From a virus (taxonomy: Duplodnaviria; Caudoviricetes): a stretch of DNA of 64,000 nucleotides. The translations under genes and the position numbers were made by a program. The stretch lies in IMG/VR virus record IMGVR_UViG_3300037761_000271, positions 22,486-86,485 of that record. One strand, 5' to 3'. Below are positions 32,132 through 62,239 of this stretch, one piece after another; within the stretch, counting starts at the first letter, position 1, and every line of letters begins with the position of its first letter. The notes beneath the pieces are model-generated. The model was not told the origin of the DNA. It ran no database searches and was given only the letters and a program-made list of their open reading frames with translations.

Positions 32132-32458
32132 ATGTTTCGGAGCGGGGAGGTCCGGCTCGTGGCAGCTCGAACAAGGCGGCTCCGTGCGGTAGGGCCAGGT
32201 GAGTCCGCGCAGGGAAGGAAGCCACCGCGTGTGACGGTAGCGGCCCAGAGCGGCAGCCACAGGGATCTGCTGGTCGCTCTGCGGTCCAGGATTGCCCAGG
32301 CAGTCGAGGACCCGAACACGCCACCCCGGGATCTGGCGTCACTGTCGCGGCGGCTGCTGGAGATCGCTAAGGAGATCGAGGCGATCGATGCCGACGACCA
32401 GGGGGACGAAGTTGGTGCGGCAGCCGCGACGCCGGACGAACCGTGGGCTGCTACCTGA
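32132..32458 (+). CDS. Terminase small subunit
   Basis: RDLLVALRSRIA..PPRDLASLSRRLLEIAKEIE; synteny. Confidence 0.75.
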   Translation: MFRSGEVRLVAARTRRLRAVGPGESAQGRKPPRVTVAAQSGSHRDLLVALRSRIAQAVEDPNTPPRDLASLSRRLLEIAKEIEAIDADDQGDEVGAAAATPDEPWAAT

Positions 32459-33902
32459 GGCCCGTCACCTGATCTTGCCGAAGGGGATCCGGTCGTCCGG
32501 GTTCCCTTCGGTGCGGGAGACGTGCCGACGTGTCGGTATCGAGTTCGACCGGTGGCAGCAGGATCTGAACAGGTGCCTGCTGGCCAAGGACGCGGCCGGG
32601 TTGTACGCGGCCGACACCGCGGTGCTGTCGATCGCGCGCCAGGTGGGTAAGACCTTCGACGTGGGTGCGGTGGCGTTCGCGTTGTGTATCGCCACGCCGG
32701 GTCTGACGGTGGTGTGGACGGCGCACCGGTTCAAGGTGTCGCGCGAGTCATTCAACGAGATGCGGGCATGGGCGAAACGGCGCCAGCTCGCCGCGCACAT
32801 CGACTACGACGAGATCACCACTGGGGCGGGGAACGAGCAGATCCCGTTCCGCAATGATGCCCGGATCGTGTTCGCGGCCCGGGAGCGTGGGGCGATCCGC
32901 GGGTTCACCAAGGTCGGGGTGCTGGTGCTGGACGAGGCGCAGATCCTGACCGAGGCGGCGCTGTCGGACCTGGTGCCGACGACCAACCAGGCGCCGAACC
33001 CGCTGGTGATCCTGATGGGCACACCGCCGAAGCCGACCGACCCGAGTGAGGTTTTTGTCCGGCTGCGGCAGGAGGCGCTGGACGGCGAGTCGGATGATGT
33101 GCTGTACGTCGAGCTGTCCGCCGACGCGAACGCCGACCCGAACGACCGTAGGCAGTGGCGCAAGGCGAACCTGTCGTACCCGGCCCGCACGTCGGAGCGG
33201 GCGATCCTGCGGCTGAAGAAGCTGCTGTCGGCCGAGGATTTCCTGCGGGAGGGGCTGGGGGTCTGGCCGGAGGGCGGCCTACCGAAGTGGCAGGTAATCA
33301 GCGAGGCGGCGTGGCTGGCCCGGCAGAAGACCACCCGCGCGCAGCTTCGGCTGGTCGACCCGGTGACGCTGGGGGTGGATGTCACCCCGGACCGGACCTG
33401 GTCGGCGGTCGCCGCCGCCGGTGACCGGGTCGGTGGCGGCCGGGCGGTGGAGGTCACCGCCGACCCGCAGGCGGCCGAGCTGCGGGACCGGGTGGACTAC
33501 CGGCCGGGCACCGGCTGGGTGATACCCCGGCTGAAGACGCTGGTGGAACGCAACCGGCCGTGTGTGATCGTGATATCGGACCGGGCGCTGTTCGAGGAGG
33601 CCGAGGCGGCTGGGCTGCCGGCCTACCGGGCCAGCACCGGCGACCTGGCGTCGGCGGCGGCGAAGCTGTACGACGGGATCGCCGGCACCACCCCGGACGT
33701 GTGGCACTCACCCGACCCGGACCTGGCCGATGCGGCGGCGGGGGCGACGAAGCGTCCGCTCGGCGATGGGTGGGCGTGGGACCGCCGCTCGGTCAGCGTC
33801 AACATCTGCACCCTGGTCGCCACCAGCCTGGCGTTGTGGGGGGCGGCAACACCTCGCATCCACGTTGCCCGGTTGACCCCGTTCGCCCTCGTCGGCAGCT
33901 AG
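32415..33902 (+). CDS. Terminase large subunit
   Basis: IARQVGKT Walker A, LVLDEAQ Walker B, MGTPP, LGVD nuclease motif. Confidence 0.93.
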   Translation: MRQPRRRTNRGLLPEARHLILPKGIRSSGFPSVRETCRRVGIEFDRWQQDLNRCLLAKDAAGLYAADTAVLSIARQVGKTFDVGAVAFALCIATPGLTVVWTAHRFKVSRESFNEMRAWAKRRQLAAHIDYDEITTGAGNEQIPFRNDARIVFAARERGAIRGFTKVGVLVLDEAQILTEAALSDLVPTTNQAPNPLVILMGTPPKPTDPSEVFVRLRQEALDGESDDVLYVELSADANADPNDRRQWRKANLSYPARTSERAILRLKKLLSAEDFLREGLGVWPEGGLPKWQVISEAAWLARQKTTRAQLRLVDPVTLGVDVTPDRTWSAVAAAGDRVGGGRAVEVTADPQAAELRDRVDYRPGTGWVIPRLKTLVERNRPCVIVISDRALFEEAEAAGLPAYRASTGDLASAAAKLYDGIAGTTPDVWHSPDPDLADAAAGATKRPLGDGWAWDRRSVSVNICTLVATSLALWGAATPRIHVARLTPFALVGS

Positions 33903-33905
33903 ATA

Positions 33906-34000
33906 CCCTCGCCTTGCCCCGCCTGGCCAAGCCAGGCCCGGCCTTGCCGCACCTAGCCATGCCCGGACTCGCCGTACCCAGCCGTGCCCCGCCAGGCCAC
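33906..34000 (-). ncRNA. NN-GGY pentamer array 3 (putative guide RNA)
   Basis: 18 consecutive 5-nt units at 33911-34000 (17 GGY, 1 GTC) plus a terminal GAGGG; starts right after the stop codon at 34002. Confidence 0.85.
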
Positions 34001-35113: not shown

Positions 35114-35139
35114 TTCCCCGTGCTCCTCGTGTTGGTAGT

Positions 35140-35214
35140 TCCCTGCCGCGCCCAGCCGTGCCTCGCCGAGCCCAACCTAGCCAGGCCGCGCCGGGCCCGG
35201 CCCCGCCCCGCCTT
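35140..35214 (-). ncRNA. NN-GGY pentamer array 2 (putative guide RNA)
   Basis: 14 perfect NN-GGY units at 35145-35214 plus a terminal AGGGA. Confidence 0.87.
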
Positions 35215-35217
35215 GCG

Positions 35218-35259
35218 TGCGGTGGTCGGGAGTCGAACCCGACTGATGACCATCACCGC
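35218..35259 (-). ncRNA. tRNA-like minihelix between arrays 1 and 2
   Basis: GCGGTG/CACCGC stem plus GTCGGG-TTCGACT-CCCGAC T-arm, followed by a discriminator-like A. Confidence 0.75.
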
Positions 35260-35261
35260 GC

Positions 35262-35336
35262 CCCATGCCCCGCCTCGACAAGCCGTGCCAAACCAAGACT
35301 CGCCACGCCCAGCCTCGCCTGGCCAAGCCGTGCACC
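35262..35336 (-). ncRNA. NN-GGY pentamer array 1 (putative guide RNA)
   Basis: 13 units at 35267-35331 (11 GGY, 2 GTC) plus a terminal ATGGG. Confidence 0.85.
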
Positions 35337-35339
35337 CGC

Positions 35340-35380
35340 AATATACCACGCTTTACGGGATACATACCACGTCTATACCG
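35340..35380 (-). promoter_or_regulatory. Extended -10 promoter of the cassette with direct repeats
   Basis: TGgTATATT at 35348-35340, about 7 nt before array 1; ATACCACG at 35343 and 35364 (21 bp apart). Confidence 0.65.
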
Positions 35381-35398: not shown

Positions 35399-36787
35399 GT
35401 GAGCTGGTGGCGGAGGCTGCTGGGGCTCCAGCGGGCCACCAGCACCGAGTTGCAGAAACGGTCGGCCCTGTCCTGGCAGGATTATGTTGATCTTTTCAGT
35501 TTTGGTGGCTCCAGCTATCCGCTGCTGAACACCACCATGGCCTCGATGAACGAGGAGGCCATCGGGTCGACCCTGTCGCAGGTGGCCAAGTCCAACGGGC
35601 CGGTATTCGCGCTGCTGCTCGCCCGGCTACAGGTGTTCTCCCAGGCCCGGTTCCAGTGGACCCGCTTCGACCGGGGGGCGCCCGCCGACCTGTTCGGCAC
35701 GGACGAGCTGGCTGTGCTGGAGCGGCCGTGGCCGGGTGGAACCACCGCGGACCTGCTCGCCCGGATGGAGATCCAGGTCACCACTGCCGGGAACGCCTAT
35801 GTGCGCCGGGTCGGCCGGGGCGAGAAGTCCCGGCTGATCTGCCTGCGGCCGGAGTGGATGTACATCGTCCTCGGGTCGCAGACCGACGCCGACCACCCGG
35901 CCGAAGCCGCCGACGTGGAGCTGCTCGGCTACGTCTACAAGCCACCCAACGCGAAGATGGTCACGTTCCTGCCCGAGGAGATCGCTCACTACGCGCCGAT
36001 CCCGGACCCGGACGCCACCTACCTGGGCATGTCCTGGATCACCGCCGCCCTGCGGGACATCTCCGGCGACAACCTGATGACCGACCACAAGCGCGCCTTC
36101 CTCCGCAACGCGGCCACCCCCAACATGGTGATCAAGTTCGACCCCAGCATCACGCTTGCGGCGGTCAAGGAGTTCAAAGAGGTCTTCGAGGCCGAGCACC
36201 AGGGCGCGCTGAACGCATACAAGACGGTGTACCTGGGCGGCGGCGCCGACGCGACCGTGGTCGGCAAAGACTTCCAGCAGTTGGAGTTCGCGGTCACCCA
36301 GGGCAAGGCCGAGTCGCGGCTGGCATCCTGCGCCGGGGTCCCCCCGTCCTGGGTCGGATTCTCCGAAGGGCTCCAGGGTTCGTCGCTCAACGCGGGCAAC
36401 TTCACCGCCGCCAGGCGCCGCTTCGGCGACGGAACCATGCAGCACATGTGGATGAACGTCGCCGCCAGCCTGGAGATCCTGGTCCGCCGACCCAGCGTCG
36501 GCGTGTACCTGTGGTTCGCCACGAAGGGCATCCCGTTCCTGCACATGGACGCGAAGGACGCGGCCGAGGTGCAGGCCACCGAGGCGCAGACCATCACCGC
36601 GCTGGTGCGGGACGGGTTCACCGCCCAGTCGGCGATCCTCGCGGTCCAGAACCACGACTGGTCCCGCCTGGTGCACACCGGGAGGGTTTCTGTCCAGCTC
36701 CAGACCCCCGGTGAGGCGGACGCGGCGCAGGTCAACGGCAACGGCGCCCGGCGCGGAGAGCTGATCGTCGGTGCCCTGCGGCCATGA
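35399..36787 (+). CDS. Portal protein (HK97-like)
   Basis: GNAYVRR, LRPEW, FLRNAATP, VPPSWVG; position after terL. Confidence 0.92.
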   Translation: MSWWRRLLGLQRATSTELQKRSALSWQDYVDLFSFGGSSYPLLNTTMASMNEEAIGSTLSQVAKSNGPVFALLLARLQVFSQARFQWTRFDRGAPADLFGTDELAVLERPWPGGTTADLLARMEIQVTTAGNAYVRRVGRGEKSRLICLRPEWMYIVLGSQTDADHPAEAADVELLGYVYKPPNAKMVTFLPEEIAHYAPIPDPDATYLGMSWITAALRDISGDNLMTDHKRAFLRNAATPNMVIKFDPSITLAAVKEFKEVFEAEHQGALNAYKTVYLGGGADATVVGKDFQQLEFAVTQGKAESRLASCAGVPPSWVGFSEGLQGSSLNAGNFTAARRRFGDGTMQHMWMNVAASLEILVRRPSVGVYLWFATKGIPFLHMDAKDAAEVQATEAQTITALVRDGFTAQSAILAVQNHDWSRLVHTGRVSVQLQTPGEADAAQVNGNGARRGELIVGALRP

Positions 36788-39388: not shown

Positions 39389-39823
39389 GTGAGTGATCTG
39401 TTCGTGGCGCGGCAGTCCGGCACGGTGATGCTGGATGGCCGGCGGCACGCGATCCGCCGCGGGGTGACCGTGGCGAGGGCGGGATCCGAGATGCTGGCGA
39501 GGCATCCCCGGCTGTTCGAGCCGATGAAGGTGCACTACGACGCGCCAGCGAAGGGGCGTCGTAGTGCGGCGCCGGTGGAGCAGGCCACAGCCGTACCGGG
39601 TGAACGGCGGGCGGTCCGACTGCCCGAGCCGGAGCCTGAGCCCGACCCGGGCCCGGAGCCGAAGCAGGCTGTCCCGCAGCGCCCACCCACGTCCGGTGCC
39701 GGGTCCTCGGCTCCGGTGTGGCGGGAGTACGCGGCGGCGGTCCTCGGGGCACCGGCCGAGACGTACGCGACGCTGGGCCGGGACGAGATCATCGCCCTGC
39801 TGAATGCCCAGCCGGTGGGCTGA
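39389..39823 (+). CDS. Capsid-adjacent virion protein
   Basis: RBS AAGGAG; WREYA..GRDEIIALL C-terminus. Confidence 0.6.
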   Translation: MSDLFVARQSGTVMLDGRRHAIRRGVTVARAGSEMLARHPRLFEPMKVHYDAPAKGRRSAAPVEQATAVPGERRAVRLPEPEPEPDPGPEPKQAVPQRPPTSGAGSSAPVWREYAAAVLGAPAETYATLGRDEIIALLNAQPVG

Positions 39824-40628
39824 GATCCCCGCCAGCCGCATCACCGTCTCGGTGCCGTACTGGCATGCGGCCGGCACGGTCCGCCGGACCGTCGAGTCGG
39901 TGCTCGCCCAGACGTGGCGGGACCTTACTGTCGTCGTGATCAACGACGGTGACGATGTGCGCCAGCTGCACGCCGCGCTGCGTGGCATCCGCGACGACCG
40001 GTTGGTCGTCCACAGTCTGCCGGCCAACCACGGCATGTACTTCGCCACCGCGGTGGTATTGGGTGGCACCGGCGACCGGCTGTGGTCGCAGGTCGACGCC
40101 GACGACTGGATCGAGCCGCACCGGTTGGAGAAACTGGCCGCCGGGCTGGGCGACGCTGACGCGGTGTTCACCCCATGGACGAACCACAACCTGGACGGCA
40201 CCACCCACATCCGTGGCATCCAAACCCCGGAGTACCAGGCCGAGCAGGGCTGGACACTGCGGGCTGTCGCCCACATGTGCAACCTGTGGACCACGGGGTT
40301 CGCCCGGCAGATAGTTCACCCGGGGTGCCGGCTGGCGTGGGACCAGATGATGACCCAGCTCGCCTGGCGGTTCGGAACCATCACTGTGGTCGACGATCCG
40401 AGCCACCACCGGCAGATGACCGCCGGGTCGCTGATGGCCTCGGCCCGCACCGGCCGAGGCAGCCCAGCTCGCCGCCGGGACCGGCGGCATCACAAAAGGT
40501 TGTGGCCGCAGCTGACCGCCTGCGCGGACGTGGCGCAGGCGAGCAGGTTGCTCCGCCGCGACAGCGGCCGGCCGGTCGTGAACGAGCTGAAGGCGGAGGT
40601 ATGGCGGATGAGGCAGGCACTCGCATGA
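39804..40628 (+). CDS. Glycosyltransferase family 2 (GT-A)
   Basis: VSVPYW..VESVLAQT..VVINDGD..VDADD. Confidence 0.88.
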   Translation: MPSRWAEIPASRITVSVPYWHAAGTVRRTVESVLAQTWRDLTVVVINDGDDVRQLHAALRGIRDDRLVVHSLPANHGMYFATAVVLGGTGDRLWSQVDADDWIEPHRLEKLAAGLGDADAVFTPWTNHNLDGTTHIRGIQTPEYQAEQGWTLRAVAHMCNLWTTGFARQIVHPGCRLAWDQMMTQLAWRFGTITVVDDPSHHRQMTAGSLMASARTGRGSPARRRDRRHHKRLWPQLTACADVAQASRLLRRDSGRPVVNELKAEVWRMRQALA

Positions 40629-41554
40629 TCGTCGGGGTGACCGGCGGTGCCGGGTTCATCGGCGGGTATGTCTGCGAGGAGCTTCAACGGCGCGGGCACG
40701 AGCCGGTCGTGTTCGATCACCTGGGCCGCGGCGACGGTAGCGTGATGCTCGGCGACGTACGCGACGCCACGGCGATGACGGAGCTGGCCGCGCACGTGGA
40801 CGGGATCATCCACCTGGCCGCCTGTCTGGGCACCCAGGAGACGATCCGCAACCCGCGACCGGCGGCCGAGACGAACATCCAGGGCGGGCTGAACTTCCTG
40901 GAGGCGATCGCCCAGTACGGCATACCCGGCTGCTACATCGGCGTCGGGAACCACTGGATGGACAACACGTACTCGATCTCCAAGACGGCTGTGGAGCGGT
41001 TCGTCCGCATGTTCAACCGGGAGCGGCGGACCCGCTGCAACGTGGTGCGGCTGGTCAACGCCTACGGACCCCGGCAGTCGGTGGCACCACCGTTCGGACC
41101 CGCCAAGGTACGCAAGATCACCCCTGCGTTCGTGTGCCGCGCCCTGACCGGGCAGCCGATCGAGGTGTACGGCGACGGGCAGCAGGTCTCCGACATGGTG
41201 TGGGTTGGTGACGGAGCCCGGGCACTGGTCGCCGCGCTGGAGGGCGCCGATCGGGGTGCCGTACACGACCGGGTGGTCGAATGCGGGCCGGCGCAGCACA
41301 CCACGGTGGAGCGGGTGGCCGAGCTGGTGCGGCGTCACGTCGCCAGGCTCGGGTACGAGCCACAGGGGGTAGTCCACCTGCCGATGCGCCCCGGGGAGGT
41401 CCCCGGGGCGAAGGTGATCGCCGACTACGAGACGCTGCGGCTGGTCGGCATCGACCCGGAGACCCTGAAACCACTGGACGAAGGGATCGCCGAGACAGTC
41501 CGCTGGTACGCGGAGCACTGGTTGCCCGGATATCTAAAAGGGCAGGGCCGGTGA
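40625..41554 (+). CDS. NAD-dependent epimerase/dehydratase
   Basis: VTGGAGFIG, YSISK (YxxxK), NAYGP, GDGQQVSD. Confidence 0.93.
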   Translation: MIVGVTGGAGFIGGYVCEELQRRGHEPVVFDHLGRGDGSVMLGDVRDATAMTELAAHVDGIIHLAACLGTQETIRNPRPAAETNIQGGLNFLEAIAQYGIPGCYIGVGNHWMDNTYSISKTAVERFVRMFNRERRTRCNVVRLVNAYGPRQSVAPPFGPAKVRKITPAFVCRALTGQPIEVYGDGQQVSDMVWVGDGARALVAALEGADRGAVHDRVVECGPAQHTTVERVAELVRRHVARLGYEPQGVVHLPMRPGEVPGAKVIADYETLRLVGIDPETLKPLDEGIAETVRWYAEHWLPGYLKGQGR

Positions 41555-61667: not shown

Positions 61668-62239
61668 GCGCTGAGACACGCCAGCTGGCCCGGGTGAGCG
61701 CCCAGCGGCGGCGCCGGACGGTGGCCTCGGTGGTGGTTGCGGTCGCCGCGTTCGCCGCGCTCGGGTTCTCCGGGTGGCAGTTCGCCGGCCGGGTCAACGA
61801 GCAGGAGCAGCGGGCGGCCGAGGCGCGGGCCGCGGTGGAGCAGCTGTGCACCCAGGTGGAGCAGCTCGGCCGGCGGTGTGTCGTGGACCCGGAGGAGCTG
61901 CGGGGCGAGCCGGGAGCGCCGGGGCTGCCCGGACCGCCGGGGCCGCCGGGGCCTGCCGGTCCGGCGGGTGAGCCCGGCCCGTCCGGGCGCACGGGCCCGG
62001 ACGGTTTGCAGGGGCCGGGCGGGGATCCGGGGGCGGCAGGCCCGGCCGGTGAGATCGGCGAGCCGGGGCTGCCGGGTCCACCGGGTGAGCCGGGGCCGGC
62101 GGGTCCGCAGGGTGAGCCGCCGCTGTCGTGGACGTTCACCATCCAGCGCGGCGGCCAGCTAACCACCCACCGGTGTGTTCGGGACGAGCCATTTGACCCG
62201 GGGGCGCCGAGGTACGAGTGCCAGCCGGTAGAAGAATAG
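61664..62239 (+). CDS. Membrane-anchored collagen-like protein
   Basis: TM segment plus G-x-y repeats. Confidence 0.8.

Follow-up and report, generated by a model that had tools for sequence, protein, structure and literature searches.

Systems termed VIPR, for Viral Interference Programmable Repeat, were described in three 2026 preprints, including bioRxiv 10.64898/2026.04.26.720920 and bioRxiv 10.64898/2026.04.26.720927. In these systems, Vipr, a small protein of the RAMP type, polymerises along a vrRNA that consists of 9–16 GGY+NN pentamers followed by a structured tail (bioRxiv 10.64898/2026.04.26.720920). The GGY of each pentamer is buried in Vipr and the NN is presented (VIPR preprints); structures are given in bioRxiv 10.64898/2026.04.26.720927 (PDB 36pp). 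In Vipr of Escherichia phage SUSP1, the residues contacting G1, G2, Y3 and the DNA strands are H17, R138, D177, W178, R179, E71, K33, R39 and K82 (VIPR preprints). The NN dinucleotides have been shown experimentally to pair with double-stranded DNA such that every third target base, usually a codon wobble position, is skipped, a code published in April–June 2026 (bioRxiv 10.64898/2026.04.26.720920), and the authors argue that wobble skipping defeats synonymous escape (VIPR preprints). Binding of the Vipr–vrRNA complex silences transcription, as demonstrated for the SUSP1 and Pseudomonas fulva systems (VIPR preprints), and R-loop formation is reported to start at the 3′ end of the guide (VIPR literature). 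Rival satellites and prophages serve as natural targets, which were called when at least 80% of the NN positions matched; the target genes published are a satellite recombinase and prophage regulators, and no self-targets have been seen (VIPR preprints). The main texts of the three preprints mention neither tRNA-like tails nor a tail-less guide beside vipr.

The window analysed here covers the final 64 kb of a virus record in IMG/VR that is 86,485 bp long and has 70% GC. Its VIPR cassette reads, on the minus strand, as a possible promoter, array A, a tRNA-like minihelix, array 2 (array B), vipr, a vap-like gene and array C (Table 1). It is flanked on one side by the gene for the large subunit of terminase and on the other by the portal and protease-capsid genes, all of which are oriented oppositely to it. 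From sequence comparison, array 2 is interpreted as the vrRNA guide tract of a VIPR system in an uncultured sediment actinophage, with a probability of about 85%; the membership of the locus in the VIPR family is surer than the guide function of array 2. The family and its skip code were already known, and the new element is this actinophage example. Two features of its clade go unmentioned in the main texts on VIPR: arrays set apart by tRNA-like elements, and a guide that lacks a tail and is continuous with the vipr leader. Apart from one RAMP gene and one small gene, the cassette contains no protein genes. PADLOC detected nothing, Rfam contains no family for the RNAs of the cassette, and a consensus scan found no full sigma-70 site for the cassette.

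Table 1. Features of the VIPR cassette and its flanks, in window coordinates.
Feature	Position	Strand	Remarks
Terminase large subunit gene	32292..33902	+	phrog_9, E 2e-43
Array C	33909..33998	-	18 pentamers (17 GGY); downstream guide
vap-like accessory gene, P0002	34002..34541	-	179 aa; start overlaps vipr stop
vipr, P0001	34541..35113	-	190 aa; Cas7-like RAMP
Array 2 end to vipr start	35114..35142	-	29 nt, short, unstructured; holds the GGAAC end unit and the ribosome-binding site
GGAAC end unit	35138-35142	-	directly after array 2
Array 2 (array B)	35143..35212	-	14 GGY+NN pentamers; putative guide part of vrRNA
CGC+AA unit	35213..35217	-	immediately before array 2; probably the conserved post-minihelix junction
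tRNA-like minihelix	35218..35259	-	42 nt; acceptor-like stem and T arm; between arrays A and B
Array A	35265..35329	-	13 pentamers (11 GGY, 2 GTC); first guide of the cassette
TGG + TATATT	35340..35348	-	possible extended -10 promoter for the cassette, proposed from sequence alone
Portal gene	35399..36787	+	Pfam Phage_portal, E 5e-31

Two other regions of the window may be mentioned for their gene content. Genes for a family 2 glycosyltransferase and an NAD-dependent epimerase (39804-41554) directly follow the protease-capsid fusion gene. Tandem 9-nt and 27-nt repeats of the GCCGGGACC type at 61901-62119 could encode collagen-like Gly-X-Y, perhaps in a tail fibre.

The protein encoded next to array 2 is Vipr, a Cas7-type RAMP, as judged from its homology. 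Its match among solved structures is PDB 36pp_D, annotated "SUSP1 Vipr protein" (E 1e-30, residues 4-187), and it is 34% identical to the SUSP1-type Vipr. It also matches phrog_4652 (E 9e-55), and neither Pfam nor PADLOC has a family for it. All contact residues of the SUSP1 protein are kept in the alignment: H17, K33, R39, E71 and K82 correspond to H16, K32, R38, E70 and K81, and R138, D177, W178 and R179 correspond to R136, D175, W176 and R177. A structural model of the protein built from 24 relatives reached a pLDDT of 95.3, and its top Foldseek matches were Csm3/Cas7 subunits from CRISPR complexes of types III and VII (E 4e-6). The gene downstream of vipr encodes a putative accessory (Vap) protein of the kind found adjacent to vipr in VIPR systems. 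It is 35% identical to gp77, the product of the post-vipr gene in Gordonia phage MakoManhole (E 1e-24), which is annotated as 'DNA binding protein'. It also matches phrog_5926 and, weakly and locally, the gene that follows vipr in a SUSP1-type Felixounavirus. DNA binding by this protein is a prediction.

This Vipr has tblastn matches in 130 phage records, and 26 loci were found in species-representative genomes, where the closest proteins are those of a Streptantibioticus MAG (71%), Planomonospora venezuelensis (69%), an unclassified Actinomycetes MAG (68%), Streptosporangium (67%) and Streptomyces (65%). Same-strand GGY+NN arrays surround vipr in 17 of 17 loci examined, which comprise two phages each of Gordonia and Mycobacterium together with 13 loci from bacterial and archaeal genome assemblies. 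Across 69 arrays in 30 related loci, all 16 dinucleotides are used and no NN series is shared. The arrays of the present cassette likewise consist of tandem GGY+NN units on the vipr strand, in intergenic DNA flanking the genes, with NN positions that are hypervariable; a VIPR array is defined by a minimum of 4 such units and usually has 9-16. Two annotated genes of related phages overlap such elements and are probably not genes: Trine gp40 (L011 3091-3894, Gordonia phage) and LittleE gp35 (L012 2054-2443, Mycobacterium phage), both 'hypothetical protein' in GenBank, lie over vrRNA arrays and minihelices.

In the actinomycete clade, the arrays are separated by minihelices, after which a CACGCA-type motif follows. 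Each minihelix consists of an acceptor-like stem, a linker of about 10 nt and a T arm whose loop, of the GGTTCGA type, is invariant. Beyond the copy at 35218-35259, 23 more instances were found in L001, L011-L014, L017-L020 and L022, and compensatory changes are present in 10 of the 11 predicted pairs (24 instances, 12 loci). ARAGORN called no tRNA, the minihelix included. The covarying minihelix of this cassette is likely both a processing signal and the 3′ tail of array A. The structured, invariable 3′ tail of published vrRNAs would then be present in array A, and hence in the system, and is lacking in array 2: the stretch between the end of array 2 and the vipr start codon contains no tRNA-like tail or T-loop (fold of the 29 nt, -8.6 kcal/mol).

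Read as its reverse complement, array 2 is a run of perfect pentamers, with 14 of 14 units conforming to GGY+NN. The NN series GG GG CG CC GC CT TA TG TC GA AC TG GC AG agrees with the series listed in the first-pass annotation, a model's reading of the letters made without database searches. The probability of GGY at a fixed place is about 0.06 in DNA with 70% GC, and by our own arithmetic 14 such triplets in phase have a probability of about 1e-17 per start. An in-phase scan of the whole window for GCC (cut-off 7/8) returned only two regions, both of which lie inside the VIPR cassette. Since all 14 units conform and the scan found the cassette alone, the pattern is real and far beyond chance. 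The first-pass series had begun with an additional AA, read as K/N, but this dinucleotide follows CGC rather than GGY. CACGCA(A) or CACGCT stands downstream of the minihelix in L017, L018, L020 and Trine, and because the leading AA has no GGY and falls inside this conserved junction, it probably does not belong to the guide. The guide is therefore probably better counted as 14 units, without the leading AA. The listed matches to the array 2 region were three sediment-metagenome DNA contigs, none of RNA origin, and those three contigs gave no clear picture of variation in array 2.

When the 14 dinucleotides are taken as codon positions 1 and 2, they give G-G-R-P-A-L-Y-C-S-[D/E]-T-C-A-[R/S], and the decoding proposed earlier is arithmetically right. 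The zinc-binding motif that the first-pass annotation had named for this peptide is also real. When about 1,600 actinomycete genomes were searched in six frames with a profile, GRPxxYCSxxC followed by R-x-x-A-x-R, with a CxxC upstream, emerged as a zinc-ribbon module located N-terminally in TetR regulators, ATPases of the LuxR type, coiled-coil proteins and small proteins. The motif is also present in IMG/VR contigs, and several PHROG families match it, HNH endonucleases among them. For the seven fixed residues to arise within an 11-codon window, the probability is 4e-9 to 1.5e-8 (about 4e-9 with observed NN frequencies), and none of 68 other arrays spells them in either orientation. The resemblance to the motif is thus unlikely to be due to chance. 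As the first-pass annotation had stated for the window, no motif-bearing gene is present there, and none was found in the whole 86,485-bp record. The wobble-skipping code that it proposed was right in kind, because the locus is a VIPR system and the skip rule has been shown by experiments on homologous systems; it is no new revelation, having been published in 2026.

Because many actinomycete and phage proteins have at their N-terminus the zinc-ribbon motif that array 2 spells, its target would likely be a gene of this kind, carried by a phage or mobile element that competes in a Streptosporangiaceae-like host. The target is not in this phage, as had been anticipated: the best self-match of array 2 in the 86,485-bp record is 19/30, equal to that of shuffled guides and hence at chance level, and no site in the source contig matches at 80% or more. 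The gapped-pattern search proposed in the first-pass annotation, run as exact patterns in viral, genome and metagenome collections and with up to three mismatches in 381 Streptosporangiales genomes, gave no near-perfect match. For instance, the exact one-base-skip pattern of all 15 units had 0 matches in the viral, genome and metagenome contig collections, and the exact pattern of units 2-13 had 0 in viral contigs. Units 3-10 and 6-13 matched 8 loci at 17-20/30, which were out of frame or contained stops and are attributable to chance. At up to three mismatches, the Streptosporangiales genomes contained 0 matches. Patterns anchored on the motif found 6 viral loci, the best being L072 at 24/30, and 0 loci in metagenomes. 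With the peptide as a profile, the best match among about 1,600 actinomycete genomes was 23/30, and a profile of 14 real motif segments searched against 5.8 billion proteins reached at best 11 of 14 residues. The peptide search of related loci gave 9 pattern matches, 0 of which were confirmed, and tblastn against phages with a 20-aa typed peptide and a 45-aa real segment, an insensitive search, returned nothing.

The two best in-frame matches differ in origin. L050, which encodes a hypothetical protein of Planomonospora sp., matches at 23/30 with the first nine units perfect and the last six poor, so that its mismatches fall at the 3′ end of the guide, where the R-loop is reported to start (VIPR literature). 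L072, a viral contig with 55% GC, matches at 24/30, having been preselected on 18 fixed positions. Given the size of the search space, we estimate that chance alone would give 23/30 many times over. L050 and L072 therefore reveal the gene family and do not identify the target, and no natural target of array 2 was found at a convincing match in the collections searched. This absence is weak evidence, because the searches of whole collections were exact and the search of the 381 Streptosporangiales genomes tolerated up to three mismatches, so that targets with 4-6 mismatches fell outside the range, and because databases sample uncultured sediment phages poorly.

The other two guides and the question of the host gave separate observations. 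Exact patterns of arrays A and C had 0 matches in viral contigs, and no targets for them were found among 72 collected loci. The best self-match of array A, 19/26, lies at 35474-35511 in the 5′ part of the portal gene, in exact codon register with the portal start at 35399, and only 2 of 200 shuffled guides reach 19. Decoded array A resembles the portal peptide WQDYVDLFSFGG. Array A looks like a guide against the portal genes of related phages, the copy in this phage itself being kept under the threshold of 80%. Under this match, at 35480-35509, the portal gene uses T-ending codons (GAT TAT GTT GAT CTT .. AGT TTT GGT), whereas it otherwise has 92% G/C at third positions; the match does not account for these codons, since the guide does not read the base that it skips. 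With regard to the host, the best motif match of array 2 (L050) and the closest Vipr prophage of a cultured strain (L015, Planomonospora venezuelensis) both belong to Planomonospora, which hints at a Streptosporangiaceae host. Contrary to this hint, the structural genes of the phage resemble those of Rhodococcus phages, with about 66% nucleotide identity.

The way in which array 2 would act can be outlined from the gene order and from the homologous systems. A single minus-strand transcript would carry array A, the minihelix, array 2, vipr, vap and array C, and host tRNA-processing enzymes would probably cut it at the minihelix, freeing the 5′ end of array 2. Vipr protomers, one per pentamer, would then bury GGY and present NN, as shown in homologues whose contact residues are conserved here. 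The resulting filament would pair NN with double-stranded DNA, skip every third base and silence transcription, as shown for SUSP1 and P. fulva. Counting against the reading of array 2 as a guide are the target searches, which produced no convincing natural target, the 3′-end position of the mismatches in L050, and the lack of a structured 3′ tail such as published vrRNAs and most arrays of the clade possess.

In a rather unlikely extension of the guide reading, array 2 would represent a distinct, conserved, tail-less class of vrRNA fused to the vipr leader, with its 5′ end cut at the minihelix and with a dual role: a broad-range guide that uses the zinc-ribbon motif against many genes of mobile elements, and an RNA operator that throttles the translation of vipr. 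The main rival to the guide reading, which is unlikely, makes array 2 chiefly a cis-acting leader on the vipr–vap mRNA, where a Vipr filament would cover the ribosome-binding site about 15 nt downstream and autoregulate expression. The 29 nt that separate the end of array 2 from the vipr start codon without tail or hairpin fit such a leader, as does the recurrence of a tail-less array abutting the vipr ribosome-binding site in MakoManhole, L015 (Planomonospora) and L019 (a Mycobacterium prophage). A mere scaffold, however, has no need to spell a recognisable protein motif, and the NN series of array 2 is as variable among relatives as those of other guides. A position upstream of vipr is no argument against a guide either, given that SUSP1 also has a working vrRNA there (VIPR preprints). 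The leader and guide roles are compatible and do not exclude each other.

A very unlikely reading holds that array 2 is decayed or a decoy, still bound by Vipr after its living target has gone. Although no collection searched contained a target at 80% or more and array 2 lacks the usual tail of the clade, it keeps all 14 GGY scaffolds undamaged, while degenerate units are found in arrays A and C, and with uncultured sediment phages poorly sampled in databases the missing target carries little weight. Least probable is that the periodic tract is a DNA feature, such as phased sites for a packaging protein or a G-quadruplex-prone tract. In favour of this are its position between terL and portal and the recurrence of GG at 5-nt intervals, from which quadruplexes of two layers could in principle arise. 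Against it, the arrays of relatives accompany vipr and not packaging genes (they adjoin DNA polymerase in Trine and lie among tail genes in LittleE), they are always on the vipr strand, and homologous arrays have been shown to be RNAs bound by Vipr (VIPR preprints). Packaging-site repeats and a quadruplex tract were both rejected once the homology to Vipr had appeared.

The VIPR family gains a high-GC actinophage, probably of a Streptosporangiaceae host, and, with array 2 as a probable guide, a concrete, testable guide that spells a widespread zinc-ribbon motif. If guides commonly aim at conserved protein motifs, one guide could silence whole gene families in rival elements, which is a lead and not a result.

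The closest known systems are the Type II VIPRs of Escherichia phage SUSP1 and a Pseudomonas fulva prophage. The cassette shares with them a small Cas7-like Vipr that keeps the GGY-contact residues, a small accessory gene of the DNA-binding type downstream, GGY+NN guides (13-18 units here versus 9-16 published), arrays on both sides of the genes, and a phage-borne location without a self-target. It differs from them in that the tail is a tRNA-like acceptor/T-arm minihelix rather than the published pseudoknot, in that array 2 is tail-less and runs into the ribosome-binding site of vipr, and in its high-GC actinomycete host. More distant are the Cas7 filaments of class 1 CRISPR systems (Csm3, Cmr4 and type VII Cas7), with which Vipr shares the RAMP fold, the use of one protomer per short RNA repeat unit, and a thumb that periodically breaks the guide–target duplex. 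The VIPR cassette nevertheless has no CRISPR array, Cas6 or adaptation genes. In VIPR, one period spans 5 nt of RNA and 3 nt of DNA, versus 6 and 6 in class 1 Cas7, and only two of every five guide bases are informative. Membership of the locus in class 1 CRISPR-Cas was rejected on its 5-nt units, which are not repeat–spacer units, its single RAMP gene with one small gene, and the empty PADLOC result.

A formal parallel is found in TRAP, the trp attenuation protein of Bacillus, which is a ring-shaped oligomer that binds GAG/UAG triplets with spacers of 2-3 nt, one subunit per triplet. A TRAP-like spacer array, like an attP tRNA fragment, was dropped as a reading after the homology to Vipr emerged. 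TRAP and the present arrays have in common a conserved triplet with a 2-nt variable spacer, a 5-nt period and binding by an oligomer. In TRAP, however, the spacers are uninformative and the ring-forming protein has an unrelated fold, whereas here the spacers would constitute the guide and the protein is predicted to form a RAMP filament.
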